From a virus: a stretch of DNA of 50,133 nt. The notes under the pieces are model-generated. The model ran no database searches, had not been told where the DNA came from, and worked only from the letters and a program-made list of their open reading frames with translations. Below are positions 1-50,133 of this stretch, piece after piece. How positions within the stretch are numbered: position 1 is the first letter of the stretch; each line of letters starts with the position of its first letter. A program made the position numbers and the translations under genes. The stretch spans positions 1 to 50,133 of the IMG/VR virus record IMGVR_UViG_3300045988_134114; one strand, 5' to 3'.

Positions 1-17
1 ACTACCGATGAACTGCC
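1..17. repeat. IR-L of the fibre cassette pair (ACTACCGATGAACTGCC; also at 50079-50095)
   Basis: 15/17 match to the reverse complement of 580-596. Confidence 0.7.
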
Positions 18-55
18 GTCCCACAAACATACTATTTCAAGCACGGGAGCACATA
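1..55. repeat. Terminal overlap: bases 1-55 are identical to 50079-50133, so the molecule closes into a 50078-bp circle
   Basis: Direct comparison of first and last 55 nt (ACTACCGATGAACTGCCGTCCCACAAACATACTATTTCAAGCACGGGAGCACATA). Confidence 0.95.
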
Positions 56-312
56 CTCACTATGTGGCATGGAAAGGAACAGGGGCCCAATATGGCACAT
101 TAAGCAGTGGAAATTACTTAGCAACTGCTTGTGATGAACATGGAGATTGGTCTCAAAATTATAATTTGAGTGGGCAAAATAATGCCGCAAATAGCGGTAA
201 AACATCTAGCACAGGGGCACATACACACACAATCGCAAACGCCGGAAATGATAATTCGCATGAAAATCGCATGCCTTTTGAAACCGTCGCCCGTTGGAAG
301 CGAACAGCTTAA
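1..312 (+). CDS. Tail fibre, 3' part (expressed C-terminal cassette A). It continues the ORF that starts at 49119 and runs off the window end
   Basis: Frame 1 is open from base 1 (TTDELPSHKHTISSTGAHTH...HENRMPFETVARWKRTA*). The 55-nt overlap joins it in frame to 49119..50133. Tail-collar-like motif GGEAKHQLTTDELPSHKH. Confidence 0.85.
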   Translation, partial: TTDELPSHKHTISSTGAHTHYVAWKGTGAQYGTLSSGNYLATACDEHGDWSQNYNLSGQNNAANSGKTSSTGAHTHTIANAGNDNSHENRMPFETVARWKRTA

Positions 313-596
313 GCAATCCTTTTCCAACGTTGTACCACTTCGTAAGGCGGACGATTTTCATGCCGAGAGTTGCTGCCAGTAGATGTAACAGAACCACTGG
401 CAGTATGTGAATGGCTACCAGCATCACCGCAAACGTCCATTGCTGCCGCTTCATTTTGATATGTATTTTTTTCTACATTGTCAATATAACGATGCGACCC
501 ATTAGAATAATCTCCATAAATAGTATGCGAATGATTGCCTGCACTTGAAATATTGATCGTTACGCTATGCCCATGACTAGGTAGTTCCTCGGTAGT
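309..596 (-). other. Silent alternative tail-fibre C-terminal cassette B, with no start codon of its own
   Basis: My translation of the minus strand 596->309: TTEELPSHGHSVTINISSAGNHSHTIYGDYSNGSHRYIDNVEKNTYQNEAAAMDVCGDAGSHSHTASGSVTSTGSNSRHENRPPYEVVQRWKRIA*. It is homologous to cassette A at both ends. There is no ATG/GTG/TTG before codon 53, and no minus-strand ORF ending at 309 appears in the ORF track. Confidence 0.75.
580..596. repeat. IR-R of the fibre cassette pair (reverse complement ACTACCGAGGAACTACC)
   Basis: 15/17 inverted match to bases 1-17. Both copies encode TT(D/E)ELP. Confidence 0.7.
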
Positions 597-631: not shown

Positions 632-1261
632 ATGAAATGTTTCCAAATCGAAAAAAATGAAGTTTTGATTATTGATGGTGAAAAACAATACGTTGATACC
701 ATCGAAAATTTTAAAAAAGATAGCGGTATTAAATCGTTGCCGGTACGTGTTTGGTATAACAACGAGCAGCCAAATGTCGTCATCAAGACGGATGAGAAAG
801 CCGAAGAAGAATGGAAATCTTACCCCATTGCCGAATATGACGACTATATCGCGGCCATCGACGAATACATGGTAGCGAAAGAAAAGCGCGAGTACGTCCC
901 GCCGACCTTCGAGGAACTCAAAGAGCAGGCTCTTAATTATCAGTACGGCGAGTATGTAAAGCAGCGTGATGCTCTTGTATATGTTGATGGGATGGGCTTT
1001 ACGACGGACGCCGCGGGCCAGCAGGATTGGCAAATTGCCCTTACTCTCATGGGGGATTCTGGGCAGTACAAGGTCTATGACGCGGACGGAAAAACGGCAA
1101 CATTGCAGACTGTAACTAAATCTCAGATGATGGCAGCCGGGGATGCCGCCAGAGCGCAGCAGCTTGCGGCGTACAGCTGTTTCGTCACTGTCCGAGAAAA
1201 TATCAAAAATTGCCAGACCGTAGAGGATTTGCAGGCGTATTTGCCGCAAGAAACCGCATAA
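632..1261 (+). CDS. Tail-fibre assembly/chaperone-like protein (position-based; DUF4376-like by eye)
   Basis: ORF 623..1261. The ATG at 632 has better AAAGGA spacing. It lies immediately after the fibre cassettes. Confidence 0.4.
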   Translation: MKCFQIEKNEVLIIDGEKQYVDTIENFKKDSGIKSLPVRVWYNNEQPNVVIKTDEKAEEEWKSYPIAEYDDYIAAIDEYMVAKEKREYVPPTFEELKEQALNYQYGEYVKQRDALVYVDGMGFTTDAAGQQDWQIALTLMGDSGQYKVYDADGKTATLQTVTKSQMMAAGDAARAQQLAAYSCFVTVRENIKNCQTVEDLQAYLPQETA

Positions 1262-1382
1262 CTAAGCCGTTTTTAGGTGTTGCATAGCATAGAACAAATT
1301 AAGAGCAGGGAACCGCGAAGGATGTATCGGGATTCCTTGCTCTTTTCTATTGTGTCGGATAAGCGCAGGTAAAGAACAAACG

Positions 1383-2393
1383 CTATATCATGTCGATGGC
1401 TTTTCGTAAATCTTTAATCGTCTTGTGTGTATAATCATGCTTCGTAACACCTTTGCAAGCATGGCCGAGAATTTTCTTTGTGGCCGTATCATTGGCGCCG
1501 GCGCTATCCAGCATGGATGCCGTCGTGTGTCGGGTTTCGTGCGGGGTGTGCTGCATATTAAAGTGCTCCATTACGTCGTCAAAGCGGCGGCGCATGGTGC
1601 TGTATGTATGCGGCGTTCCCGTTTCCTGCTGACAGATATATTGCTGGCCGCTTTTGATTCGCTGTACAAACCACGGATAAATGCTTTTATGGATTGGTAC
1701 CGGCCGGTTCCGGCCTGCGTCGGTCTTTGATTGACGCACAATAAAATAATGGCTGCGTAATTTGACATCGCTGGCCTTTAGCTGAATGTATTCTCCGATG
1801 CGCAGGCCCGTATAGATCATGATGAGTACGTCGGCCACCTCGGCCATCTCATCCAGATTTCGCCATAATTTGTTGCGCTGCCTGACGGTAAAGGGATGCT
1901 TCGGGTATTTTTTTACATGCGGTGAAATGTCGACATACTGGGCGTAATTCGTTTTTACGAGGTCATACTTTAGCGCATAGGCGTATAGCTGTTCCATTAA
2001 CCCGCGAATTTTCTTCTGTGTGCAATAGCCGATTCCTTGTTGCTTTACGGTATCGATGACGCCCTGAAGGTGCCCAAAGCGGATAGCAGAAAAGGCCATA
2101 TCGTGCAGCTGCTCGCAATGCCTATATGAATTTTCATATCCCTTCCGACTGGATGCCGACAAATTCGGAAATTTTTGCACTTTCCAGCGGGCATATAGTT
2201 CTTTAAAGGTAATGTTGTCGGAAAATGCGGACGGGTCACGGTTAAAGTCGACCAGAAAGGAGAGGCCATGTTCAAACGTATCAAAATATCCGAGTATTTT
2301 TTGCCGCCCTTCTATCGTCTTTTTCACGACAAACGGCCGCCGCCGGTTCCCCTGCATCCGGTAAACGGTTCCGAAACCATTTGGTAATTTCAT
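1383..2393 (-). CDS. Tyrosine recombinase / phage integrase family (recombinase 1)
   Basis: 336 aa. N-terminal arm-type segment GFGTVYRMQGNRRRPFVV. Catalytic-domain motifs TGLRIGE, HETRHT, LGHA..., DYTH. Confidence 0.85.
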   Translation of the reverse strand: MKLPNGFGTVYRMQGNRRRPFVVKKTIEGRQKILGYFDTFEHGLSFLVDFNRDPSAFSDNITFKELYARWKVQKFPNLSASSRKGYENSYRHCEQLHDMAFSAIRFGHLQGVIDTVKQQGIGYCTQKKIRGLMEQLYAYALKYDLVKTNYAQYVDISPHVKKYPKHPFTVRQRNKLWRNLDEMAEVADVLIMIYTGLRIGEYIQLKASDVKLRSHYFIVRQSKTDAGRNRPVPIHKSIYPWFVQRIKSGQQYICQQETGTPHTYSTMRRRFDDVMEHFNMQHTPHETRHTTASMLDSAGANDTATKKILGHACKGVTKHDYTHKTIKDLRKAIDMI

Positions 2394-2455: not shown

Positions 2456-3028
2456 ATGAAACTTATTTTATGCGATACAAACGAACGGCTGTGTGCGGCT
2501 TGGAAAAAGAGGTTTGCCGGAGAACCTGACGTCGAAGTCATCCATTCCCGATTCGAAGATGTCGCAGAGTACGACGCGATCGTCAGCCCGGGAAACTCTT
2601 TCGGGCTGATGGACGGAGGCATTGATGCGGCCATTATTGATTATTTTGGCTATGAGCTGATGCAAAGGGTGCAAGCCGAAATCATGGCCCAGTATTGCGG
2701 AGAACAGCCGGTCGGTACGTGTCTGCTGGTCCGTATCGATCATGCCCGGCATTCTGTTTTGGCTCATACGCCGACGATGCGCATACCGCAAAACATCCTG
2801 GGCACGGATAACGTCTATAATGCCATGCGGGCGATGTTAATCGCCGTAAAGCGCAGCGCAGACATAAAAACGGTCTTATGTCCGGGCCTTGGCACCTGCA
2901 CCGGCTGTATGCCGGAAGAGTTGGCCGCGGCGCATATGTATATGGCTTGGCGGAACGTCATGGATCCGCGGCCTATCAGCTGGAAAAATGCCGTAGACAT
3001 TGAGATAGAATTGCGAGGCGCTCCATGA
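2456..3028 (+). CDS. Macro-domain protein (Macro_2-like ADP-ribose binding/processing fold)
   Basis: 190 aa. Motifs AIVSPGNSFGLMDGGIDAAI, AHTPTMRIP, CPGLGTCTGCMP. RBS GGAGCAGGAG upstream. Confidence 0.7.
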   Translation: MKLILCDTNERLCAAWKKRFAGEPDVEVIHSRFEDVAEYDAIVSPGNSFGLMDGGIDAAIIDYFGYELMQRVQAEIMAQYCGEQPVGTCLLVRIDHARHSVLAHTPTMRIPQNILGTDNVYNAMRAMLIAVKRSADIKTVLCPGLGTCTGCMPEELAAAHMYMAWRNVMDPRPISWKNAVDIEIELRGAP

Positions 3029-3486
3029 TGACGGCATTGATGAGCTGGATGCGGAGCCTGATTCCAGTCCAGACAGAAATAGAATGGGGGGCGGTGGCGT
3101 CGGCGGCGGGAGCATTGATTACACATTTTACGGGATGGAGTGATATTCACGAAGCATTGGTCGTCATCATGGCTATAGACTACATTACCGGCATAGCAGC
3201 GGCCTATATCAATCCCAACATGAAACTCAACAGCAAGAAGGGATTCGCTGGCTTTTGTAAGAAAATGGTTATTCTTTGCCTTGTAGCCTTGTCTCACGAG
3301 CTGGATATGGCCCTGGGGCAGTCGACATTGACGCAGCCTTTTGTCGTCTGGTTCTTCATTGCTAATGAAGGACTATCCATACTGGAAAATGCCGGGAAGG
3401 CCGGGCTTCCTATCCCCAAAAAATTAAGAGAAACGCTGGAACAGCTCGCCAGCGAAAAGGAAGAGAAGGGAGAGCGGAAATCATGA
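3025..3486 (+). CDS. Holin (phage_holin_4_1 / TcdE-like family)
   Basis: 153 aa with multiple TM segments. Motif FFIANEGLSILENAGKAGLPIP. ATGA overlap with the upstream gene. Confidence 0.8.
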   Translation: MMTALMSWMRSLIPVQTEIEWGAVASAAGALITHFTGWSDIHEALVVIMAIDYITGIAAAYINPNMKLNSKKGFAGFCKKMVILCLVALSHELDMALGQSTLTQPFVVWFFIANEGLSILENAGKAGLPIPKKLRETLEQLASEKEEKGERKS

Positions 3487-3803
3487 TGTATGAAGGATGC
3501 TTAGATTTCAGTGCAGCACTGGAGGTATTAAAGTCCGGCGGCAAGGTTAGCCGGATAGGCTGGAATGGAAAAGGAATGTTCATTTATTATGTTCCGTCGG
3601 CCTATCATGAGCCAAAAACAGATGCAGGTAAGCACTTGGCCGGAGAAGGCGGAAAGGTGCTATATGGCGGATTTATCGCCATGAAGACAGCTACCGGCGA
3701 AGTGGTTCCATGGCTGGCCAGTCAGACGGATTTGCTGGCCGAAGACTGGTGCGTTTATTTGTTTGGTAGCGAAGAAAAAGCAGTGAAGGGGATTGTGATG
3801 TAA
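3483..3803 (+). CDS. DUF2829-like small protein (same family as the Thoeris anti-defence sponge Tad2)
   Basis: 106 aa. Motifs FSAALEVLKSGGKVSRIGWNGKGMFIYY and SQTDLLAEDWCVY. ATGA overlap with the holin stop. Confidence 0.6.
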   Translation: MMYEGCLDFSAALEVLKSGGKVSRIGWNGKGMFIYYVPSAYHEPKTDAGKHLAGEGGKVLYGGFIAMKTATGEVVPWLASQTDLLAEDWCVYLFGSEEKAVKGIVM

Positions 3804-5078: not shown

Positions 5079-5930
5079 TTACAAGGTATATTTTTCGATT
5101 GTCAATTTTGGGATTTCAAATAGCTCATGATCATCTACTTCGTAATCTTCCCAGCGGCACGGGATGTCAATGTCGTCCTTTTTAGCTATCTTGATAGCCT
5201 TATTTATTAATGCGGAGTTGCAAACTCCTAAGCTGGATTCGTGCTTAATCCAGTAAAAAAGGGGAACGTACATGCTTCCGTCTGGGCGGGCGATGGCTGC
5301 ATCTGTCTGGAACATATCCAGCATAGCCACTTTCAATTTTTCCGCGTCCTCATCGGAAAAGCCGGTTTTTTGAGCAATGAATGGCGTAATACCCCCAGAA
5401 AATATATACGCTCCATAATCTATCTTGGGAAGGGACATTCCGTAGGTTTCCGAGCCGCGGCCTTCTTCTGTCGTGATATTTCCTGACCGCGTAATCTGAA
5501 TATCACGAATCGTCACGGCATCCAACGAGCGCGCCATAGATATAGTAACGGGACCCTTAACTCCGGAAATCATGGTATTTTTAAAGGGTAACATGGAGAA
5601 TACCATGCCGAAGGCGCGGACATCGAAAAACTCCTGACAGAGAACGGATATAGCTTCCGTTTCTTGCTTTTGGCTGAGTAATTTTCGAACGGCAGGAAGG
5701 CTTGCCCGTTCCTTTACATTCTTACATCCGTCGTCAATGCGGTCATGGGCCTGTAATAAAATTCGTTCCCCGGCGAGTTGCAGCCGATTACGGATTTTTC
5801 TTTTTATGCAAACGTCAGTAATTTCTCCGTAGCCGACATAATCCGTACGGGGGCGATTTTCTAATAGGGGGTCGCCGTTCGGGTTGCACTTCGTAGCGGA
5901 TATGATTCCAATGAAATTGATTTTATTCAT
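5079..5930 (-). CDS. cas7: Solitary Cas7 homologue (Csd2/Csh2/DevR-type, type I-C/I-B-like backbone subunit)
   Basis: 283 aa. N-terminal signature ATKCNPNGDPLLENRPRTD...GEITDVCIKRKIRNRL. Further motifs FFDVRAFG, VKGPVTISMARS, ITRSG, KTGFSDEDAEKL. RBS GAGGAGG and ATGA overlap with the upstream gene. Confidence 0.8.
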   Translation of the reverse strand: MNKINFIGIISATKCNPNGDPLLENRPRTDYVGYGEITDVCIKRKIRNRLQLAGERILLQAHDRIDDGCKNVKERASLPAVRKLLSQKQETEAISVLCQEFFDVRAFGMVFSMLPFKNTMISGVKGPVTISMARSLDAVTIRDIQITRSGNITTEEGRGSETYGMSLPKIDYGAYIFSGGITPFIAQKTGFSDEDAEKLKVAMLDMFQTDAAIARPDGSMYVPLFYWIKHESSLGVCNSALINKAIKIAKKDDIDIPCRWEDYEVDDHELFEIPKLTIEKYTL

Positions 5931-6349
5931 TGTTCTTCCTCCTCGGCAGTAATTTCGCTGTATTCTTTGCTGTTAATTTCGTAGTCAATACTTGTGTCGA
6001 GGCCATATAACAATTCATTTACCAGACGGACACGCTGGACGATATTCAAAGCCTCAATTTTTTTGTATAACTCATTATCTGTAGAGCACCCAAAGTAATC
6101 CAACACATCTAAATGCAAGTCCTTGATTTTTGAAGCGGTGACTTTCGAGCCCCAAAGAATATTATATAGGACTTCTTTTTCTCCGTCGGAAAACTCCGGG
6201 AGAGGTGAGAGCGTCATCAAAATTTGATAGCTGTTGACGATCAGCCCCAGCGCGCGGCTAAAGCCGCCATTTCGACGGCTGTCGGCCTTTGTTTGCTCAG
6301 CAAGCAGTTCTAACGGCTCGTTCATATAAATTTTCTTGACTTTTCCCAT
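5927..6349 (-). CDS. Ribbon-helix-helix-like DNA-binding protein with a helical C-terminal domain and acidic tail (candidate operon regulator)
   Basis: The internal start M62 of ORF 5927..6532 has RBS AGGAGG plus a 7-nt spacer. The N-terminus KKIYMNEPLELLAEQTKADSRRNGGFSRALGLIVNSY fits the RHH strand-helix-GxS-helix pattern. Confidence 0.55.
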   Translation of the reverse strand: MGKVKKIYMNEPLELLAEQTKADSRRNGGFSRALGLIVNSYQILMTLSPLPEFSDGEKEVLYNILWGSKVTASKIKDLHLDVLDYFGCSTDNELYKKIEALNIVQRVRLVNELLYGLDTSIDYEINSKEYSEITAEEEEQ

Positions 6350-6372
6350 ATTGATTCCTCCTATAAAAATAA

Positions 6373-6397
6373 CAAAAAAAGCGGCATTTCTGCCGCT
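6373..6397 (-). terminator. Intrinsic terminator/attenuator between the acidic ORF and the RHH-cas7 pair
   Basis: Minus strand reads AGCGGCAGAAATGCCGCT followed by T7. Confidence 0.6.
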
Positions 6398-6407
6398 TGA
6401 ATACTTA

Positions 6408-6665
6408 CTAATCGTCGACCAGCTGGTCGACTTCTTCCGGGGGCATTTCTTCGCTATAAACTTCGACAGCAAAGAACTTTTTCCCCTCGGCAGAAACCAT
6501 ATCCTCATCGACAGGGTCAGGGATTTCCTCACAACCTAAGTCATCCATAACCTTGTCAAAACCAAGAATATCCCATCGTACTGGGTGTAAACTTTCATCT
6601 ACCCAGCCAAGATATACGTCGTCACCATGGCTATTTCTGCCGAAAACCTTATAAAATTTTCTCAT
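6408..6665 (-). CDS. Small, very acidic protein (85 aa), first gene of the cas7 operon
   Basis: Internal start M10 of ORF 6408..6692 with RBS AAAGGAGG. The C-terminal half is rich in D/E (EEIPDPVDEDM...EEMPPEEVDQLVDD). Confidence 0.55.
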   Translation of the reverse strand: MRKFYKVFGRNSHGDDVYLGWVDESLHPVRWDILGFDKVMDDLGCEEIPDPVDEDMVSAEGKKFFAVEVYSEEMPPEEVDQLVDD

Positions 6666-6729: not shown

Positions 6730-6758
6730 ATTATAACACTTTATGGGCATAAAATCAA
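6730..6758 (-). promoter_or_regulatory. Sigma70-type promoter of the cas7 operon (-35 TTGATT at 6758-6753, 17-nt spacer, -10 TATAAT at 6735-6730)
   Basis: Read on the minus strand. Operator 1 fills the spacer. Confidence 0.55.
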
Positions 6759-6797
6759 TAGTTTATGCCCATAAGATTAGTAATTTATGGGCATAAA
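6740..6797. promoter_or_regulatory. Three palindromic operators TTATG(GG/CC)CATAA at 6741-6752, 6763-6774 and 6785-6796, with 22-bp centre-to-centre spacing
   Basis: Exact 12-mers seen in the sequence. Half-sites are TTTATG/CATAAA. Confidence 0.7.
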
Positions 6798-7200: not shown

Positions 7201-8301
7201 TTATTCCAGATCAAAAATATTTTGGATGTTTTGCGCAGCATTTCGGCGCATTTCTTCACTGTAATGGACATACTTTTTGATGACCGTTTCGACGGTATCC
7301 CCTAACAATGCGGCGACCGTTTTTATGTCAACGCCCCTCGCCAGCAATGTAGTTGCATACGTATGCCGTAAGACATGAATCGAGGTATCCGGAAGGACTT
7401 TCTTTATGTGATGGTTTATGATATTTGTCTCGCTGTTTTTTAAATAAAAGATTCGCCCATCCGGGGCTACTGGGAATTTCGCTTCTTTATATTCTGTCAG
7501 GATTCTTTGCAGCGTGATAGGCATAGGAATCGTCCTTTTAGAATTCGACGTCTTTAGTTTCCCTAACTTATATTCGTATGTCTTTTCAGCTGTCCGAAAT
7601 CTTTTAAATTGGCGGATAACCTTTAATTCCTTTTTGTCTAAGTCAATGGAGGCCCATGTCAGCCCGGCAATTTCGCCATAACGCAGTCCGGCATAATATC
7701 CCACCGCAGCCATCACAGAAAGCATGTACTGATTTTCATGCAAGTATGCATATAAGCAATTGAATTCCTTGGTGGAAATCGTCTGGATTTCTTCTTCATT
7801 GATTTCTGGGTAAATGATTCCGTCCATAGGAGACTTTCTCAATAATTCGTAAAATGTGATCGCGTGGCGGATCATTACTTTGAATTTGCTCATGTATAGC
7901 TCAACAGTGGATGCGGAAAGCTTGGATTCATTTACGCAAGTTTGGATATAAGCCCGTGTAAGGTCTGGTAAAGGAATATTACATAAATCCGAAAAGGCAG
8001 CTATTGCGTTTTCATAAACATCTATAGATCCATCCGAAAGCTGCTTTTTCTTATCTATTTGGTAAATGGCCCAAAATTGTTTCAATGTGATATTTTGCAT
8101 AAGAGGGTCGGCGGGTGTCGGGACATAGTTTTCCGCTATTTCTTTTAATAGCTTTTCCCCGGCAGCTTTGGCAAGGCTTTTCTGTGAGAAGCCCTGCTTT
8201 GACTTCTGTTTCCATTTTCCGTCAGCCTTATACGACAGGATAACCTGCCAGCCGGTAGATTTTTTCCGATAATGGAAAGCATGGGGAATCATATCGTCCA
8301 T
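7201..8301 (-). CDS. int: Tyrosine integrase (recombinase 2; sits beside the lysogeny module)
   Basis: Start M24 of ORF 7201..8370 with RBS GAGGAGG. Motifs AGLRYGE, HVLRHTYAT, LLGDT, YVHY. Confidence 0.85.
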   Translation of the reverse strand: MDDMIPHAFHYRKKSTGWQVILSYKADGKWKQKSKQGFSQKSLAKAAGEKLLKEIAENYVPTPADPLMQNITLKQFWAIYQIDKKKQLSDGSIDVYENAIAAFSDLCNIPLPDLTRAYIQTCVNESKLSASTVELYMSKFKVMIRHAITFYELLRKSPMDGIIYPEINEEEIQTISTKEFNCLYAYLHENQYMLSVMAAVGYYAGLRYGEIAGLTWASIDLDKKELKVIRQFKRFRTAEKTYEYKLGKLKTSNSKRTIPMPITLQRILTEYKEAKFPVAPDGRIFYLKNSETNIINHHIKKVLPDTSIHVLRHTYATTLLARGVDIKTVAALLGDTVETVIKKYVHYSEEMRRNAAQNIQNIFDLE

Positions 8302-8549
8302 GACCTTCACCTCCTCACAAAATAAAACAAGTGTTCGGCTCATTGCGTCTAAATTTTCCCCTGCCTGCAAAACGGGCAGGGGATTTTTGCGTATTAAATG
8401 TAGAATTAAATGCAGAAAATGGGATTATTCTGCATTTATCGTCTTAAAGTGAACGATAAATGGAACGATAAAGCGCGCTTTGAACAGCTTCCAAATTGGA
8501 AATAGTTGCGGTTCCCGGCAGTTGTTGCATTTTTTGCAACAACCACTTT

Positions 8550-10674: not shown

Positions 10675-11310
10675 TTAAAATTTATTTTTCCCTCTCAACT
10701 CGACTACCTCGCCCAGTATCTGGACAGGTAGTTTTTCTATTTCATCGTTCGTGTAGAAGTGGGGCTCGTATACGCTGATGTTATTGGCAATAAGAGTAAT
10801 ACCGTTTTCCTGCTTTTTTACACGCTTGAGCGTGGCCTCGTTGCCATTGATGAGGACAACCGCAACTTTGCCGGATTCTACATCTGCCTGCCGCTTTACG
10901 ATGACGACGTCGCCTTCCAATATGCGCGGCTCCATCGAATGGCCCTTGACTTTAAGACCGAAAAATTCGCCCGTTGCGGCCATTTCCCGCGGGATTTCCT
11001 CCCAGTCAATCACTTCCTCGACGGCATCCATAGGAATACCGGCAACGATACGGCCCAAAACAGGGATACGGACGTATTTGCTGTTTGGTTGTTGCGTAGT
11101 TGGAGTCGTGGGCGAATCATTCGCCAAAATATAATCGGCTGAAACATTAAATAATTGGGATAATTCTTTTATTTTCCTAACTGGTTGGCTTTCACCTGTT
11201 TCGTATTTAACATAAGCTGTTCGGCTTATGCCTAGATGTTTGGCTACTTCATTTTGTGACAATCCTTTTGCCTCTCGCAGTTCTCGCAACCTTTTACCTG
11301 TTTGGTTCAT
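10675..11310 (-). CDS. CI-like repressor, XRE HTH plus LexA/S24 peptidase domain
   Basis: Start M7 of ORF 10675..11328 (RBS GAGGTG). HTH motif LSQNEVAKHLGISRTAYVKYE. S24 motifs VKGHSMEP and ATLKRV. Confidence 0.85.
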   Translation of the reverse strand: MNQTGKRLRELREAKGLSQNEVAKHLGISRTAYVKYETGESQPVRKIKELSQLFNVSADYILANDSPTTPTTQQPNSKYVRIPVLGRIVAGIPMDAVEEVIDWEEIPREMAATGEFFGLKVKGHSMEPRILEGDVVIVKRQADVESGKVAVVLINGNEATLKRVKKQENGITLIANNISVYEPHFYTNDEIEKLPVQILGEVVELRGKNKF

Positions 11311-11333
11311 ATAATTCACCTCTAACAATAGTA

Positions 11334-23928: not shown

Positions 23929-26427
23929 TTGCCAATATTACGACCACAGCCAGGACCGCAAGAATTATTCCTTGCCTGCCCGGCCGACATTGCAATATAT
24001 GGCGGCTCTTAGTCTGCGGGCGGTGGGAAATCGTATGCCTTGTTGCTTGAATGCCTGCGGCATGTCGGGAATCCGAATTTCGGGGCTGTTATTTTCCGTC
24101 GTCAGTCTACGCAGATTATGGCTGAAGGCGGCTTATTTGATACGGCGCTGGGGATATATGTTCCACTGGGAGCGTATTTTAAACGGGTTCCTGCGCCAAC
24201 GGCCATATTCCCGAGCGGGGCAAAAATAAGCTTCCGGCACTTGCAATACGAAAAGGATGTTCACAGCTGGCAGGGTTCGCAGATACCGCTAATATGTTGT
24301 GAAATAAATACGAAAGTTTTAATGGCCGATGGAACGTATAAAAAAATCGCCGACATAAAAATCGGCGATAAAGTAAAAACACTGGAAGGTTCGGAACAAG
24401 TAGAAGCAGTAGGTCCAATAGAAGAAAGAAAATGCGTAAGGGTCGAATTACAGAATGGAAAAACTCAGATACAATCAAGCAATCATGAGTTCTTAACTAT
24501 TTCTGGGTGGCAGTCTTTTGATAACCTTCTTTTGCAACCCATTTTTCACCATAATAAGACAAAATTTTTTGTATATAAACATAGTTTAATTGCGGATAAT
24601 CACGACACAAATCTCCCATTGATTTATCAGTGGATAATGCATATTCTAAGATTTTTGTTGCAAGAGAAGGATTCGAGTCAATTAATTCCTGCGCTGTCCG
24701 TTTATCATAGGTCGAATGGCATTCGCCCACTTTTGATTTTTTTACCCAAGAGATTCCGTTTTTATCACAAATCCGGCGTATCGTTCGTGCAGAGATGCCC
24801 GTCAATTTGGCAACTTCCCGTAATCCAAAGCGGTTGTCTGGGGCATAAAGTTTTACAGTTTCAATGGCCGCCGGATCATCTATTTGTGTGGGAGAACGGC
24901 GCACATAATTCTTTGTTAATTCCGGAAAGTGTCGGCGCAATGTCTCTACAACAACGCCGAAATGTTTGGCAGTATATTTTATCCCATGATTTTCGAGAAG
25001 TTCTTTCACAACCGGGTATTGCATATTGTCGTGACTTTTCAATCTTTTCAGTTGTTGATGAATGGCCTGATGTTCCGCACGAGAAACTACTTGAAGGTTA
25101 TCAAGACGATTATCTGTCTTGTTTCCATTCTTGTGATGAATTAACTCCGAAGATTGTAAAAAACGGCCAAGAGCTCTCTCTACAATTAAACGGTGTTGTG
25201 GTACATAGCCCCATGGATTCGCCATGGGATGTTTTGGACACAGTTCATAAACGTAATGTCCATAAGTTACGATATTTCCACCCGTATACGGGCAAAGTAA
25301 TTCACTCGGAAGAGCCGTGTTCTTTAACTTCATGCAATGTTACCCCCTGCGGTAAAAGGTTGGTCCGAAATATCATGATATCTGGATGCAATTATTATAT
25401 CACCGAAAGTGGGTTAGTAAACAAAAATTGCTATGACGAATTGACGCATTTCACCGAATCGCAGTTCTTTTACATGCTATCCCGTAACCGTTCGACTTGC
25501 GGCGTGCGGCCTTATATCCGGGCGACATGCAATCCTGATGCCGATAGTTGGGTTGCTGACTTCATTTCATGGTGGATTGACCAGAGTACCGGCTATGCTA
25601 TCCCGGAACGCTCCGGGACACTTCGTTATTTTGTCCGAACGAGCGGCGAAATTACTTGGTCCAGCAGCCGGGAAGAACTGGAAGGAACATACGGCAAAGA
25701 CGCCGTGAAAAGCGTTTCCTTCATCTCGTCCTCAATCTATGACAATAAAATCTTATTGAAAGCAAACCCGGAATATTTGGCAAGCTTGAATGCCTTGCCG
25801 GAGGTCGAAAAAGAACGATTATTGCGGGGAAACTGGAAGATCCGCCCGACTGGGGGCATGTTCTTCAAGGCTTCACAGGTACAGATTGTCAAGTCGATAC
25901 CAGACAAGATTGTTTCAATCGCTAGGGCGTGGGACTTGGCCGCAACGGAAATTACGCCGGAACACAAAGACCCTGACCGCACGGCAGGGGCCTTGTGCGC
26001 ACGGCTGCGGAGCGGACAATTTATTTTTCTTGATGTCATTCGCCGGGCTGCGAATGCGTCGAGTGTTCGCAAGCTCATCAAGACGACTGCCATTATCGAC
26101 CGCGGCCTGTACCATAATGACAAGATTTATATACCGCAAGACCCCGGGCAGGCTGGGAAAGAGCAGGCTTTAAGCTACGTTCGCGAGCTGGCGGGGTACT
26201 CTATTGTTACTCATCCAGTAAGCGGCGATAAAGAAACTCGGGCCGAGCCGCTGGCCGCCCAATGGCAGCAGGGAAATGTCTTGCTGCTTGAAGGGGACTG
26301 GAATAAAGAATTTTTGAACGAAATGGAAGGCTTTCCCGTAGCCCTGCATGATGACCAAGTGGATGCGGCAAGCGATGCGTTTAACGCCGTAGCGTTGACG
26401 TCTGACTGGTCGGCATTAACATCATAA
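23929..26427 (+). CDS. terL: Terminase large subunit. It is interrupted by an in-frame TAG (24010-24012) in Walker A and by an intein (24295-25428) at Walker B
   Basis: TTG at 23929 after GGGGGTGA. N-terminus (M)PILRPQPGPQELFLACPADIAIYGGS*SAGGGKSYALLLECLRHV. Exteins ...GSQIPLI / CYDELTHF.... C-terminal nuclease-half motifs ATCNPD and ALHDDQVDA. Confidence 0.8.
24295..25428 (+). mobile_element. Intein (378 codons) in terL at the Walker B position
   Basis: Block A CCEINTKVLMADG. Block B SSNHEFLT. C-terminal blocks VRNIMISGCNYYITESGLVNKN followed by +1 Cys. Joining the exteins restores ...IPLICYDELTHF. Confidence 0.75.
24497..25333 (-). CDS. HNH homing endonuclease (HNH_3-type) with C-terminal HTH-like repeats, encoded antisense inside the intein
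   Basis: 278 aa. Motifs VPQHRLIVE and ELIHHKNGNKTDNRLDNLQVVSRAEHQAIH. HTH-like motif LREVAKLTGISARTIRRICDKNG. RBS-like GGGGGT 8 nt upstream. Confidence 0.8.
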   Translation of the reverse strand: MKLKNTALPSELLCPYTGGNIVTYGHYVYELCPKHPMANPWGYVPQHRLIVERALGRFLQSSELIHHKNGNKTDNRLDNLQVVSRAEHQAIHQQLKRLKSHDNMQYPVVKELLENHGIKYTAKHFGVVVETLRRHFPELTKNYVRRSPTQIDDPAAIETVKLYAPDNRFGLREVAKLTGISARTIRRICDKNGISWVKKSKVGECHSTYDKRTAQELIDSNPSLATKILEYALSTDKSMGDLCRDYPQLNYVYIQKILSYYGEKWVAKEGYQKTATQK

Positions 26428-28716: not shown

Positions 28717-30081
28717 ATGGCAGCGCGGTTTGATGGCTTTTTCAACGCCTTCATTGGGCACGGTATGCATGGCCGCGACCCATTTTCAAATTACATATAC
28801 ACGCCTTCGCGAATGATGACAGACAAAGAATGTGCCTACATGTTCACGTATAATGGCATTGCCAAAAAAATCATTACGGCTCCGGCTGACGAAGCCGTAA
28901 AGGAAGGGTTCACGCTGAAAAACGGCGATGAAGAAATGGAAGAGCAGACAAAAGCGGTGTTGTCCGTTATGGAGGACTTAGAATGGGAACAGCGATTTTC
29001 GGAAGCTCTTTCCTGGGATCGCCTGTACGGCGGCAGTGCGGTTTTGATAATGGCTGACGACGGAACGGCTGAGCTAAGCGAGCCGCTGAATGAAGCGGGC
29101 TTGCGAAGCATCGAACGGCTTGTCGTCATCGAGGCGCCGGACATTACGACCAGCGACGCCATGCTGTACAGCGACCCGCGCGACCAGTTATACGGGCAGC
29201 CGGAATTTTACAACGTGACCGGTTACTACGGAGGACGCTTCACTGTTCATGAAAGCCGCTTGCTTATGTTTCGTGGTGGTGTACTCCCCAGAGAGCAGCG
29301 GCGGAACCGGAATGACTGGGGCGCGAAAGTATACGAAAAAATGTTTAACGACATTATGCGCTATGACAGCGCCTTATCATTGGCCCTCATGGCCTTATCC
29401 CGATTATCGCAGGGCGTCATGAAACTCAATGGGCTGGCCGGAAAGCTGGCGACGGACGACGGCGAACAGCAGGTAATGAAACGCTTGCAGTTGATCGACA
29501 TGGCCCGGCACATGATGAATACCATTGCACTAGACAATGAAGACGACTATCGTCTGGAGAACATGACAATCAATGGCGTAACGGATATTATCGACCGCTT
29601 TCAAACGGCCATTTCGGCAGTTACAGAAATTCCTGTTACCGTATTATTTGGAGTTTCTCCCGGAGGGCTTAATAGTACCGGGAAGGCGGATTTCGAGAAC
29701 TATTACAATATGGTTCGCCGCATCCAAAAACGAACGCTCAAGCCACAGCTGTCACGCCTTATTGATTTGCTGGGGCAGTGCAGCGACTACGGCCTTCATT
29801 TGCCGGACAAGTATACGCTCGAGTTTAACCCGCTCTGGCAGCCGACCGAAAAGGAACAGGCCGATACGGAATACGTGAAGGCCCAGACCAAAGAGCGCGA
29901 AGCTATAACGGCCAAGACTTACTACGACATGAACGCGCTGGATGGTTCGGAAATGCGCAATACGCTGGAAAAGAACGGCGAGTATGAGCTCGACCGCAGC
30001 CTTGATGATACAATTCAAAATTCCCGGCTGGGCCTTGAACCGGGACAGCCGCAGCCCAATGCAGAAGGGAATGACGAATAA
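28717..30081 (+). CDS. Portal protein (DUF1073-like)
   Basis: ATG at 28717 after AGGAGG. 454 aa. Sits between terL and the MuF-like gene. Confidence 0.7.
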   Translation: MAARFDGFFNAFIGHGMHGRDPFSNYIYTPSRMMTDKECAYMFTYNGIAKKIITAPADEAVKEGFTLKNGDEEMEEQTKAVLSVMEDLEWEQRFSEALSWDRLYGGSAVLIMADDGTAELSEPLNEAGLRSIERLVVIEAPDITTSDAMLYSDPRDQLYGQPEFYNVTGYYGGRFTVHESRLLMFRGGVLPREQRRNRNDWGAKVYEKMFNDIMRYDSALSLALMALSRLSQGVMKLNGLAGKLATDDGEQQVMKRLQLIDMARHMMNTIALDNEDDYRLENMTINGVTDIIDRFQTAISAVTEIPVTVLFGVSPGGLNSTGKADFENYYNMVRRIQKRTLKPQLSRLIDLLGQCSDYGLHLPDKYTLEFNPLWQPTEKEQADTEYVKAQTKEREAITAKTYYDMNALDGSEMRNTLEKNGEYELDRSLDDTIQNSRLGLEPGQPQPNAEGNDE

Positions 30082-31685
30082 TGAAAGTCGTAGCGAAACG
30101 GAAATGGCGCTATCCCATGAGCTTAGAACGGCAGTATGCTAAGCAGCTTGTTGCCTACGTCAAGCGCAAATTTGCCGTCATTGACGAACACCGGCAGGAA
30201 ATCATCGACGTCGTGGCTCAGTACGCCGTCAGAATGGACGACGACAGCCTAATGGAAAGCGTCAGCGCGCAGATTTCCGTACTTCTCGACCGTATCGAGC
30301 GGGATATGGAAAGCGCTGACGACCTCACGCGGGCCATGAACAACATGTTCGACGCCGTGAACCGCTATAACGCCGGCGAATTCAACGCTCTGACGAAAAG
30401 CCTGTTCGGGTTTCCGCTGCGGGTTCCAATATCGCAAATATCGCACGCCGACAGCGCGGGCCGGTATCGTACGGACGCTACGCTTGACGATGACATCTCA
30501 ACCTTGAAAATGGTATGGGTGCGTCAGAATTTAGCCCTCATCAAGAGCATTGATGCTGATACCATGCGCCGCATTGAGGATAAAATGATGGAACGTATCA
30601 TTGCTAACGTAAGCATGGGCGATCTGACAAAGTACCTCATCAAAGATATTCGGGATATTGCCGGCGTAGAAGTGAACCGTGCGACGCTGATCGGCGTCGA
30701 CCAAGTAGGGAAACTCAACGGCAGACTGACGCAGTACCGGCAGGAACATGCGGGTATTTCCGAATATCAATGGGAAACGGCTCTAGATAGACGTGTACGC
30801 CCTTCACACCGCCCGCGGCAAGGAAAGATATACAAATGGTCAAACCCGCCGCCAGACGGGCACCCAGGCTATCCTATACGGTGCCGGTGCGTGGCCCTGC
30901 CGGTCATCAATTTGGATGAGATACCTGTTCGGCTAAAAGATGGCACATTTAAATACGTAGACTGGCCGAAAGCCCCGGCACCAAAACCGGCCCCGGCGGC
31001 AGCGGCCGCAGCAGCAACGACGGCCGCAGAGGTCAGCGCCATGTTCCCGGAACAGTTGGCCGGAGTATCACGGGGCGAGCCAATGACCCCGGATGAAGCT
31101 AATTTTGGGCGACCGAACCCGCATTTCGAAGAAAGTCAGCGGTACCGCATCAACTGCCAAAGCTGCGTCGTCACCTATGAGGCGCGGCTGCGGGGGTATA
31201 ACGTGGAAACAATGCCGAATACAATCGGCTCCATGTTATTTCAGCTGTCTTGCAATACCCGTCTGGCATGGATTGACCCGAAAACGAAAGAAATTCCTTC
31301 CTTTATTCCGCATCCAAACAGCAAAACCGGCAAGTCATATATCGCCTGGCTGGAAAAGACTATTCAAAGCGGTCAGCGGTATACCTTACAGGTCTTTTGG
31401 AAGCGCGGCGGCGGACATATCGTTTCGATAAGCCGGAACGCTGCCGGGGAGCTTGAAATATATGATCCGCAAACGGCATGGAAATATACCAAAACGACCG
31501 TAACCAATACCCGGGCAGGTAAGACCGCAAAAGATGACGGCCTTGCATGGTGGTTTGGCCGCGTTCGCTGGCGCAGCGCCGGGGAATGGTGGGGGCCTGA
31601 GCTCTTGCGTGTGGACGATAAAGAGTTTAACCTAAAAGTAGTCAACGAAATCATGAAGGCTGCGGAGGATGGTGAAACGAAATGA
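30081..31685 (+). CDS. MuF / SPP1 gp7-like minor head protein fused through a Pro/Ala linker to a papain-fold (Tox-PL1-like) C-terminal domain
   Basis: MuF motif RVRPSHRPRQGKIYKWSNPPPDGHPGYPIRCRCV. Linker PKAPAPKPAPAAAAAAATTAAE. C-terminal candidate triad: NCQSCVVTYEARLRGY (Cys), GGGHIVSI (His), EIYDPQT (Asp). Confidence 0.7.
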   Translation: MKVVAKRKWRYPMSLERQYAKQLVAYVKRKFAVIDEHRQEIIDVVAQYAVRMDDDSLMESVSAQISVLLDRIERDMESADDLTRAMNNMFDAVNRYNAGEFNALTKSLFGFPLRVPISQISHADSAGRYRTDATLDDDISTLKMVWVRQNLALIKSIDADTMRRIEDKMMERIIANVSMGDLTKYLIKDIRDIAGVEVNRATLIGVDQVGKLNGRLTQYRQEHAGISEYQWETALDRRVRPSHRPRQGKIYKWSNPPPDGHPGYPIRCRCVALPVINLDEIPVRLKDGTFKYVDWPKAPAPKPAPAAAAAAATTAAEVSAMFPEQLAGVSRGEPMTPDEANFGRPNPHFEESQRYRINCQSCVVTYEARLRGYNVETMPNTIGSMLFQLSCNTRLAWIDPKTKEIPSFIPHPNSKTGKSYIAWLEKTIQSGQRYTLQVFWKRGGGHIVSISRNAAGELEIYDPQTAWKYTKTTVTNTRAGKTAKDDGLAWWFGRVRWRSAGEWWGPELLRVDDKEFNLKVVNEIMKAAEDGETK

Positions 31686-43304: not shown

Positions 43305-43703
43305 TTAGGCTTTATGTACGTTCAATTCGTTTATCAAGGCATTTTGCAGGACGTTAGAAAAGTTTACATTGTGTTTTTTTGCCAACGTATCTAACCAACG
43401 CGGAATGGTCAGCGTCTTTTTTATAGCTTGCGTGTCGTGCAGCTGACGGTATTTTAACGTATCAGCTTTTACAAGCGAGACAATCGTACCTGATGGAATT
43501 TCTAAAACCGCAGGATCGCTTGGGGCAGGTATTTCATCGCCGCTTTCTTCTGCATTCCACAACCACAAATTTAAGGCGTCTTCGGCCATATCCACAGCAT
43601 CAGCCAACGAATCCCCTTCCGAAAAAATGTTGGGGAAATCGGGAAAGTGAATTAGATATGCGTCATCTTCCTTTGTAAATAATACAGGGTAAATGTATTT
43701 CAT
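43305..43703 (-). CDS. hicB: HicB-like antitoxin with a C-terminal RHH-like DNA-binding tail
   Basis: Motifs YLIHFPDFPNIFSEGDSLADAVDMAEDALNLWL and C-terminal KKTLTIPRWLDTLAKKHNVNFSNVLQNALI. Confidence 0.7.
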   Translation of the reverse strand: MKYIYPVLFTKEDDAYLIHFPDFPNIFSEGDSLADAVDMAEDALNLWLWNAEESGDEIPAPSDPAVLEIPSGTIVSLVKADTLKYRQLHDTQAIKKTLTIPRWLDTLAKKHNVNFSNVLQNALINELNVHKA

Positions 43704-43752
43704 AGTTCAACCTCCTTAGAACGATGAATAAAAGCTAAGGGTAAAGCAGGGA

Positions 43753-43938
43753 TTATTTAATCCCCGCTTTTTTCAATATCCCATTGGCTGTTCCCGTTCT
43801 AATTTCTTTTGCGCCGTGACGTGGGATGATCAGTTTTTCTTTTGTAATTGGACTGTACCACACGTCATGACGGCCGCCATTTTGTAAGAACGTACAACCA
43901 TTCTTTTTTAGGATTTTGATTAGCTCTGAAATCTTCAT
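43753..43938 (-). CDS. hicA: HicA mRNA-interferase toxin
   Basis: 61 aa. Motifs ELIKILKKNGCTF...GGRHDVW and IIPRHGAKEIRTGTANGILKKAG. Confidence 0.8.
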   Translation of the reverse strand: MKISELIKILKKNGCTFLQNGGRHDVWYSPITKEKLIIPRHGAKEIRTGTANGILKKAGIK

Positions 43939-49118: not shown

Positions 49119-50133
49119 ATGCCGGGTACGCTGGATTTTTCGAAAATTTGGGGTAGCAACGCCCCGCAAACCTATACATTTACAGATGAAAATTACTTAT
49201 CAGGTTGGACGTTCGTCGGGCAGTCGCCGCCGTCCCGGTACATGTGGGATGCATGGATGAACAATGCTGACCTTAAAATGCAATGGTTGTATAATAACGC
49301 CTTTTCCGAATCGTCCCTCGGCGGCTTCCTGTTCTGGAGACTGCCATCGACGGCTTATTTTGTTGGAGATCTTCGGCAACTGCAAAACGGGCCGCTGGAT
49401 GTTTACCTAAAATGTACGACGGCAGGGATGAGCTCGGAGGAATCTATCACTGATTTGCCGGAAGAGAAAAACGTCGGCGATTCGTGGGAAGACGGCAGCG
49501 TCACATGGGAAATCATGCAGTTTGCCAGCTCGGATTCTACGTCCGAATCTATCAGCGCCCACAATAACGACCGAAGCGCCCACAAGGATTATGTCGGGGC
49601 GACTGCCAGTACGGCAGGCCAGCGCGGTATGCTTCCGGCGGCTCCGGCCGGGGCGCAGGATAAAGTCTTCAACGGCGGCGGGAAATGGGTGTATGCTGCG
49701 CTCAATATTTTGCAGCGAAACAAAGCCTATCAGGTAGGGGATTATGCATACTCTCCAACGTTGCCAAGCTGGGCATACCTCGAATGCGTTACGGCCGGGA
49801 CAACGGCAGCGACAGAACCATCTTTGCCGAGCACAATAAACAGCGTCGTAACGGACGGAACGGCAAGCTTTAAGCTGTATCATGTCGCATTGCAGAGCCA
49901 GCCAGTCGGGACTGTCCGCGATTTTACCGTTGATTTTGACCCAAATACAAAATGGGGCGGTACGTGGTCTAAGATGGCCGCAGGCCGCGTATTAGTAGCG
50001 GCAGGAGCCTATTCAGAAACAGGATTCTCGCATACTTATACATTAGGAGAAACCGGCGGCGAGGCGAAGCATCAACTCACTACCGATGAACTGCCGTCCC
50101 ACAAACATACTATTTCAAGCACGGGAGCACATA
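49119..50133 (+). CDS. Tail fibre, 5' part. The ORF runs off the window end and continues at 1..312 (424 codons including the stop on the circle)
   Basis: ATG at 49119 after AAAGGAG. No stop in this frame to the end of the window. Ends ...GETGGEAKHQLTTDELPSHKHTISSTGAH. Confidence 0.8.
   Translation, partial: MPGTLDFSKIWGSNAPQTYTFTDENYLSGWTFVGQSPPSRYMWDAWMNNADLKMQWLYNNAFSESSLGGFLFWRLPSTAYFVGDLRQLQNGPLDVYLKCTTAGMSSEESITDLPEEKNVGDSWEDGSVTWEIMQFASSDSTSESISAHNNDRSAHKDYVGATASTAGQRGMLPAAPAGAQDKVFNGGGKWVYAALNILQRNKAYQVGDYAYSPTLPSWAYLECVTAGTTAATEPSLPSTINSVVTDGTASFKLYHVALQSQPVGTVRDFTVDFDPNTKWGGTWSKMAAGRVLVAAGAYSETGFSHTYTLGETGGEAKHQLTTDELPSHKHTISSTGAH
50079..50133. repeat. Second copy of the 55-nt terminal overlap
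   Basis: Identical to bases 1-55. Confidence 0.95.

Follow-up and report, generated by a model that had tools for sequence, protein, structure and literature searches.

A likely invertible switch of baseplate-fibre tips beside a tyrosine recombinase gene in a temperate phage with Megasphaera as the indicated host

The shufflon of the R64/IncI1 plasmids comprises the Rci recombinase, the sfx sites and pilV. Here we analysed a segment of about 0.6 kb at the 3' end of a baseplate fibre gene in the IMG/VR virus record IMGVR_UViG_3300045988_134114, of which the whole stretch studied (50,133 nt, positions 1 to 50,133) is called the window in the following. This segment, positions 1-596, is likely to be a functional site-specific invertible switch between two alternative fibre tips. 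In phages, the Rin shufflon was described for Bifidobacterium prophages (Mavrich et al. 2018, PMC6109161) and later reported in Eggerthella lenta prophages (PMC8778435). BV01-like phages of Phocaeicola vulgatus carry a tail-fibre shufflon with three cassettes and six isoforms, all configurations of which were present in reads (preprint 2026, PMC13596623), and a Gin-driven shufflon is known in Enterobacter phage FRphi (PMC13418256). Phage shufflons with a tyrosine recombinase have so far been documented in phages of Actinobacteria (Rin) and, recently, of Bacteroidota (BV01-like). No link between Megasphaera, the genus indicated as the host of the present phage, and a shufflon was found in the literature searched.

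Like the window locus, Rin is phage-encoded and has the gene order constant N-terminal receptor-binding protein (RBP) gene, start-less variable C-terminal cassettes and tyrosine recombinase gene, with a short asymmetric repeat at each cassette head (in Rin the 11-bp rix) and a separate canonical integrase elsewhere in the genome. Inversions were seen in the Rin systems between prophage and virion or between related genomes, and in the Megasphaera phage family between the relatives L029 and L049 (see below). Three features of the Rin-like kind were found in the window, namely inverted 3' cassettes without start codons, a head repeat conserved as DNA and an adjoining recombinase distinct from the integrase. 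The two systems differ in host (Actinobacteria versus Negativicutes), in the structure that is altered (siphovirus-type RBP versus the baseplate of a contractile-tailed phage), in the fold of the tip (TP901-1-like RBP head versus a T4 gp10/gp12-like HxH domain) and in the site (TTCCCTAACCC versus CTACCGA). In addition, Rin lacks an N-terminal arm-type domain whereas the recombinase of the window, which was likened to it by architecture, has an extra stretch of ~60 amino acids (aa), and the window has two cassettes only.

The window is a circular contig, bases 1-55 being identical to 50079-50133 (55-bp overlap), with a unique length of 50,078 bp. The open reading frame (ORF) of the baseplate fibre starts with the ATG at 49119, runs across the junction and stops with the TAA at 310-312, encoding 423 aa that end in ...TTDELPSHKH...HENRMPFETVARWKRTA. 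This reading, given already in the preliminary description, was verified by translation and by another assembly (L017), in which the identical 423-aa protein is encoded contiguously. Residues 1-320 form the constant part of the fibre gene (49119..50078, + strand), from which the ORF goes on at base 1 of the circle into cassette A (1..312, + strand), the expressed C-terminal tip with 103 codons plus stop and with HxH motifs. On the opposite strand lies cassette B (309..596, - strand, read from 596 to 309), a silent alternative tip of 95 sense codons plus stop that has neither a start codon nor a ribosome-binding site. It begins with TTEELPSHGH and ends with HENRPPYEVVQRWKRIA; the terminal motifs are common to both cassettes and the middle differs from that of cassette A. 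As had also been noted before, the earliest in-frame ATG, GTG or TTG of cassette B is codon 53 (ORF 309..440), and upstream of the cassette the frame remains open without a start until a stop at 669-671. The two cassettes meet tail to tail in the palindrome GCTTAAGC (307..314), which supplies stops on both strands, the two stop codons overlapping by 4 bp (TTAA, 309-312). The invertible segment 1-596 holds the two tips only, with no paired chaperone gene inside the repeats.

The Pfam family Gp10_C (PF21939, the C-terminal domain of T4 baseplate protein gp10) matched fibre residues 262-422 (E 4.9e-13), and with 50.6 bits against a curated cut-off of 27 the whole fibre belongs to the proteins with a gp10/gp12-like domain; no solved structure was detectable for the fibre by sequence. 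When cassette B was analysed alone, it matched PHROG 6465 (3e-13) and, with 23.5 bits and hence below the cut-off of 27, also Gp10_C (E 1e-4). Because this match covers profile positions 68-139, the swap would replace the distal half of the Gp10_C domain. The N-terminal 138 aa of the fibre, probably a baseplate anchor, also occur in other phage proteins (P0056-P0077, e.g. P0065; 60% identity). The bodies of these proteins differ and have precomputed Pfam matches to Shufflon_N (PF04917) or PF21882, so that one anchor is combined with several kinds of fibre.

The outer inverted repeats described earlier were found again exactly at the cassette heads and are the candidate crossover sites: the left site IR-L, ACTACCGATGAACTGCC, at 1..17 (+ strand, again at 50079-50095) and the right site IR-R, ACTACCGAGGAACTACC, at 580..596 (- strand). 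They match at 15 of 17 positions, with the core CTACCGA at 2-8 in IR-L and at 595-589 in IR-R. The site motif CTACCGAKGAAYT was present in the 50 kb only in these two repeats (a third match is the terminal duplicate), 0.11 occurrences being expected. For the comparison of sites, the protein motif alone served at first to define the heads of cassettes, which gave 31 heads in the clade of the window. All of them (31/31) read xCT-ACC-GA, the 7-bp core CTACCGA being invariant. The first head codon changes the encoded amino acid (ACT, TCT, CCT and GCT for Thr, Ser, Pro and Ala) with CT always kept, and the second is always ACC, yet ACC accounts for 19% of the Thr codons elsewhere in the cassettes. 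Since all heads keep this codon usage despite the amino-acid changes and although ACC is rare elsewhere, CTACCGA is constrained as DNA and not as protein. Position counts revealed an asymmetric site, in which CTACCGA is invariant, the 3' arm (KGARYTNSC) is semi-conserved and the 5' flank is free. Partner sites co-vary by clade (CTACCGA, CTATCGA or CTACCAATGA), which fits an overlap region that must match between partners, and the 7-bp core may well be this overlap region. A single recombinase type adjoins both the C and the T variant of the core (L055 versus L024).

The R64 shufflon, too, is a multiple-inversion system run by a tyrosine recombinase, with convergent C-terminal cassettes in segments. 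Its sfx sites, according to textbook knowledge, are likewise asymmetric, with a short invariant core and one conserved arm while the other arm is free, and a further likeness is that recombination takes place only between inverted sites despite the presence of direct repeats. R64 differs in its target, which is a conjugative pilus adhesin and not a phage fibre, and in the site sequence, and the recombinase of the window is not of the Rci family. An assignment to that family was rejected after a tblastn search of 72,556 plasmids, which yielded 62 records, mostly from Bacillus and Enterococcus and none from Escherichia or Salmonella. The latter two genera are the hosts of IncI1 plasmids.

Inversions were apparent between two near-identical relatives. 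The Megasphaera massiliensis NP3 chromosome (L029) and an IMG/VR contig (L049) are 99.7-100% identical over 13 kb, while their fibre cassettes are arranged behind the constant part in the order c, b, a versus a, c, b. The three left contexts are fixed and the three right-hand cassettes permuted, with all 3 junctions inside a 10-bp core, and the difference is explained by two successive inversions. The recombinase of these two loci is 66-67% identical to that of the window. A second switch was seen in the same pair (L029 6960-7963, L049 6960-7964). It concerns a collar-type protein of 171 aa, for which alternative tips occur at three sites sharing the core CCGTTGGGGAGTT; one of these sites overlaps the recombinase gene at its 3' end, and different tips are expressed in the two genomes. 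The window has no counterpart of this second switch.

When a sample contains a cassette with two left contexts, the first base common to both versions is the point at which a de Bruijn graph branches. Base 1 of the window is the A of ACTACCGA, common to 'CAACTC/A...' and to the alternative 'TTAATA/A...' (the slash marks the junction), so that the contig starts exactly at the predicted branch. The preliminary description had located this break correctly on the outer edge of IR-L and had graded it as weak evidence; as the exact position predicted for a graph branch, it deserves a stronger grading. Similar ends were found in relatives. The L002 contig ends exactly at CTACCGA. At the end of the L019 contig there are 87 nt of a second copy of the expressed cassette; this copy is 100% identical from exactly CTACCGA onward and is attached to another head and context. 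Three contigs of relatives from three samples (ERZ1682845, SRR2134673 and SRR31800385) start precisely behind the terminal-site core, i.e. at the inner edge of the IR-R core. In two other assemblies of this genome the breaks are at other places, and therefore the break at the core is not inherent in the sequence. That chance would put a break at one of the few special positions in 50 kb is unlikely, with an estimated rate of roughly 1e-4 per assembly.

Genome matches and the source names of related proteins, which carry the genus name, point to Megasphaera as the host. A blastn search with bases 1-2450 against 50,697 phage records gave no match. The constant regions of the fibre are very similar in the related proteins P0002-P0016, with differences mostly in the N-terminal part, and the C-termini are unrelated from ...GGEAKHQLTT onward. 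In L020 the fibre is followed by 8 start-less cassettes of alternating orientation, which adjoin each other head to head or tail to tail, in the latter case with the 4-bp stop overlap. There are 5 silent cassettes in L021 and about 9 in L002, the latter behind a different, beta-helix-bearing fibre body. The 4-bp tail-to-tail packing of the window recurs in all three of these arrays (L020, L021 and L002). Silent cassettes of L020 are found as the expressed C-termini of P0002, P0005, P0013 and P0014. Downstream of the array, L020 and L021 have the DUF4376-like gene, the recombinase, a macro-domain gene and the holin, which is the order of the window, and the contigs of L002 and L019 stop inside the array. 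Two cassettes are also present in L024-L027, with a perfect 17-bp repeat ACTATCGAGGAAATGCC (core CTATCGA) and no DUF4376 gene, and in L022, where the recombinase is apparently truncated. By means of the recombinase, 20-odd more Megasphaera prophages or viral contigs were found; where the contig is long enough, there are 2-4 cassette-ending frames (counting the expressed fibre) at a distance of up to about 3.5 kb from the recombinase. Across the related genomes the cassette number ranges from 2 to about 10, and the module of fibre, cassettes and recombinase is retained despite differences in the DUF4376 gene and the lysis genes. As judged from these comparisons, the window appears to be the minimal form, with one segment and two cassettes, of a tail-fibre shufflon family of Megasphaera phages. 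The BV01-like shufflon, set beside the window by its description, is similar in that it belongs to a temperate gut phage, in that a recombinase gene flanks the array, and in that short directional motifs (10 bp) separate cassettes overlapping the 3' end of the tail-fibre gene. It differs in host, fibre family and site sequence (TGGGAGAACT).

The recombinase that had been noticed beyond the segment is a tyrosine recombinase of 336 aa (1383..2393, - strand; Pfam Phage_integrase PF00589, E 8e-21) and is here proposed to be the invertase. It is full length and has SAM-like and catalytic domains, with all catalytic residues (R..K..HxxR..H..Y) readable in the alignment. Its conserved extra N-terminal stretch is common to the integrases of Butyrivibrio phage Arawn and Fusobacterium phage JD-Fnp2, both of which occupy classical integrase positions. 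Among solved structures the Tn1549 integrase core is the nearest relative, the best NCBIfam matches are generic Xer models far below the cut-off, and when the recombinase was compared by tblastn with the 50,697 phage records, no Bifidobacterium phage was among the organisms listed. In every fibre-anchored relative that extends past the array the recombinase gene follows the fibre and the cassettes, including clades with different downstream genes, and every recombinase-anchored locus that extends far enough has cassettes within about 3.5 kb. Two recombinase types, 38-39% identical, hold the same position in otherwise similar loci. Only two tyrosine recombinases are present in the window, the other one being the canonical integrase of 389 aa (7201..8370, - strand), which has arm-binding, SAM-like and catalytic domains and lies outside the switch in the lysogeny module, with a CI-like repressor nearby (10675..11328, - strand). 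Judged by where it lies, by its co-occurrence with the arrays and by the existence of a separate canonical integrase, the adjoining recombinase is most likely the invertase. The alternative that the enzyme at 1383..2393 is the phage's own integrase was rejected as the leading interpretation, the canonical integrase at 7201-8370 being the one that adjoins the repressor. A comparison of L055 (3025-4796) with the window (632-2393) showed a DUF4376-like protein with 95% identity and an identical terminal site and flank up to the gene start, whereas the recombinase of L055 (344 aa, L024 type) is only 39% identical to that of the window; the gene seems to have been swapped as a module.

A likeness to the Mu G and P1 C segments had also been proposed, and it holds for the logic but not for the enzyme class, which is that of the tyrosine recombinases and not that of the Gin/Cin serine recombinases. 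Mu G (Gin), P1 C (Cin), e14 P (Pin), p15B Min and FRphi all have a constant fibre body and inverted alternative tips, of which one is expressed per genome, and host range is the presumed pay-off. They differ in using a serine enzyme, and the window gave no evidence of a gix-type site or an enhancer. A Gin-type serine invertase was rejected, as the adjoining enzyme belongs to PF00589 and the window contains no serine recombinase (the best match to a Gin sequence in a tblastn search had an E of 0.76). In Mu G, P1 C and Min, moreover, pairs of tip and chaperone (Sv-U and Sv'-U') are exchanged, whereas the segment of the window contains tips only, and the DUF4376-like gene lies outside and is constant.

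The DUF4376-like gene (632..1261, + strand, 209 aa) is located just outside the segment on its right side and was also called as a gene in L017. The preliminary description had found this gene correctly and labelled it chaperone-like; the label is an unproven guess, since the protein had no match in Pfam, PHROG or NCBIfam and its model none in the PDB. The name DUF4376 was given by one source, and the model (pLDDT, predicted local distance difference test, of 93) matches predicted DUF4376 viral proteins with a best E of 3e-15; the function is unproven. The gene is present in most but not all relatives and is absent from the L024 clade. Between the convergent DUF4376-like and recombinase genes lies a hairpin (inverted repeat I3, 1301..1344), which is probably a two-way terminator. 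A promoter and terminator scan of 1-2600 detected nothing above shuffled controls.

Altogether, the proposal that the C-terminal cassettes form an invertible switch is supported by the anatomy of the locus, the multi-cassette architecture of the family, the inversions between near-identical prophages, the contig breaks at the core and the purifying selection on cassette B that is described below. The recombinase (1383-2393) would pair the two inverted sites at the cassette heads, and strand exchange within the 7-bp core CTACCGA (2-8 and 595-589) would invert about 0.6 kb. The constant fibre body (49119-50078), which carries an exchangeable distal half of the gp10/gp12-like, HxH-rich C-terminal domain, would be joined in frame to cassette B (...KHQLTT/EELPSHGH...), and cassette A would be silenced. 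In the inverted state cassette A would be preceded by ...AAATTAATA as its second left context. With one tip made per genome, the phage population would comprise two receptor specificities. We infer that the recombinase at 1383-2393 is the catalyst, that the genome of the window still flips and that the two tips bind different receptors.

Several observations weigh against an active switch. All contigs that encode the exact fibre (6/6) are in orientation A, and in exact-protein look-ups of the fibre and of the DUF4376-like protein all places shown have one arrangement and none is inverted. A fusion of the constant part with cassette B was absent from a database of 5.8 billion proteins, in which the search retrieved nothing but the A form of the window itself (84%) and relatives carrying other tips, and the inverted-junction patterns had no match in IMG/VR, a search without power as the collection searched did not include this phage. 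Beyond the core, the two repeats agree at only 15/17 positions. The nearest annotated relatives of the recombinase (30-39% identity) stand in integrase positions of other phages, and its putative role as an invertase follows from position and co-occurrence, not from its family. The differences between the arrays of the less similar L019, L020 and L021 could represent evolutionary recombination and not ongoing flipping. Finally, the recombinase of the L022 clade is apparently truncated, hence locked switches exist. In this clade (L022 7830-8771, - strand; P0030 clade, 12 contigs) the recombinase has 313 aa with a C-terminus that lacks the HxxR and Tyr motifs in the alignment, and it looks like a frameshifted gene in a locked switch.

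According to one alternative explanation, the window itself contains such a locked or decaying switch, which descends from an active shufflon but no longer inverts at a meaningful rate, cassette B being a silent relic too young to decay. The exclusive occurrence of orientation A on the 6 contigs and in the protein database, the two mismatches in the 17-bp repeats and the apparently frameshifted recombinase of the related L022 clade would agree with it, as would the fact that large arrays hold at least one truncated cassette (L002 8284..8096). However, both copies of the core are intact, and the variation found among multi-cassette arrays covers the right-arm variants of the window; the recombinase has its full length and all catalytic residues, and the contig breaks exactly at the predicted graph branch. 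Cassette B also speaks against a locked state. Its closest relative, P0121, is a silent terminal cassette beside the DUF4376-like gene in another phage, with 74% protein identity, and the comparison of the two gave a pN of 0.15, a pS of 0.67 and a ratio of nonsynonymous to synonymous substitutions (dN/dS) of about 0.10, with dS near saturation. In view of this ratio cassette B is under purifying selection and selectively maintained, and is therefore unlike a relic that is never expressed. A fragment (P0122) contains a B-like cassette fused to a constant region. In IMG/VR and metagenome contigs the best match to cassette B had 49% identity, so that these DNA collections do not include this phage. 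We consider a locked or decaying switch unlikely.

A second alternative is mosaicism, i.e. homologous recombination between phages at the coding motif LTTxELPSH, with the recombinase as an unrelated second integrase and cassette B as a by-product. The phage encodes its own YqaJ/RecT recombination pair, the closest annotated relatives of the recombinase are integrases, and the protein motif alone accounts for part of the repeat. Yet the junctions have only 7-10 bp in common, far less than RecT-type exchange needs, and the synonymous positions 3' of the head motif and next to the core are scrambled. In the pair that is 99.7-100% identical, the two rearranged loci differ by clean inversions at the cores; the silent cassettes never have start codons, yet they are open and constrained. 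The recombinase co-occurs with the arrays across clades of differing flanking genes, and a canonical integrase is already present elsewhere in the genome. Mosaicism thus has a very low probability. That cassette B or its orientation is an assembly artefact, a mis-join suggested by the location of the feature at the contig ends, can practically be dismissed, because independent assemblies (SPAdes-type and MEGAHIT k127) hold the fibre, cassette B and the downstream genes mid-contig with the same protein sequences and because the contig ends are an ordinary 55-bp circular overlap.

The putative switch belongs to the genome of a temperate contractile-tailed phage. The gene content of the window includes the portal, TerL with a Hint-type insert, baseplate genes including the sheath initiator, holin, amidase, the CI-like repressor and the canonical integrase. 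The TerL ORF (24040-26427, + strand, 795 aa) may contain an intein, as it has a match of the Hint type (intein/homing-endonuclease-associated), below the Pfam cut-off, near residues 86-139 and thus before Terminase_6N and Terminase_6C. At 6740-6797, some 400 bp downstream of the canonical integrase gene's 3' end, there are 2.6 copies of a 22-bp unit, TTTATGGGCATAAAATCAATAA, and these repeats could be arm-type or attP-related. Two products are likely counter-defence cargo, namely a macro-domain protein (2456-3028, + strand) encoded directly upstream of the lysis genes and, between holin and amidase, a Tad2-like (anti-Thoeris) protein (3483-3803, + strand). The accessory region between the lysis genes and the integrase contains a full-length Cas7 gene (5079-5930, - strand; PF05107, E 2e-66), followed by a 201-aa gene of no recognised family (5927-6532, - strand); a search of the whole window with Tandem Repeats Finder detected no CRISPR-like array. 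The gene at 30081-31685 (+ strand) encodes a fusion of a Mu F-like head protein with a papain-fold glutamine deamidase toxin domain (Gln_amidase, E 2e-11), and a pair of HicA toxin and HicB antitoxin lies just upstream of the baseplate genes (about 43305-43938, - strand; L017 187-820). The genes scanned in the vicinity of the locus included no reverse transcriptase, a scan that was not a directed search for diversity-generating retroelements.

Taken as a group, we slightly favour the view that these Megasphaera phages carry a previously undescribed shufflon family, in which a recombinase of integrase architecture, with an N-terminal extra domain unlike Rin, was recruited as a dedicated multi-site invertase. 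Such a family would have cores of 7-13 bp within the coding sequence of a metal-binding HxH collar, up to about 10 gp12-like tips, in some genomes two fibre genes with one site overlapping the 3' end of the recombinase gene, and interchangeable recombinase types of 38-39% identity, with the window as its minimal and experimentally most tractable member.

The window locus would extend the tyrosine-recombinase shufflons to phages of Negativicutes and to baseplate fibres of the T4 gp10/gp12 type. With two sites, 0.6 kb and one recombinase, it would provide a very small test system for how an integrase-like enzyme is restricted to inversion, and for phage engineering the cassette boundary (…KHQLTT/xEL…) would offer a natural in-frame point for swapping tips. 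Switching of tips would confound host-range prediction as well as metagenome assembly, contigs breaking exactly at the sites. For the phages themselves, programmed switching of the receptor-binding tip would mean that several host specificities are kept by one phage lineage.

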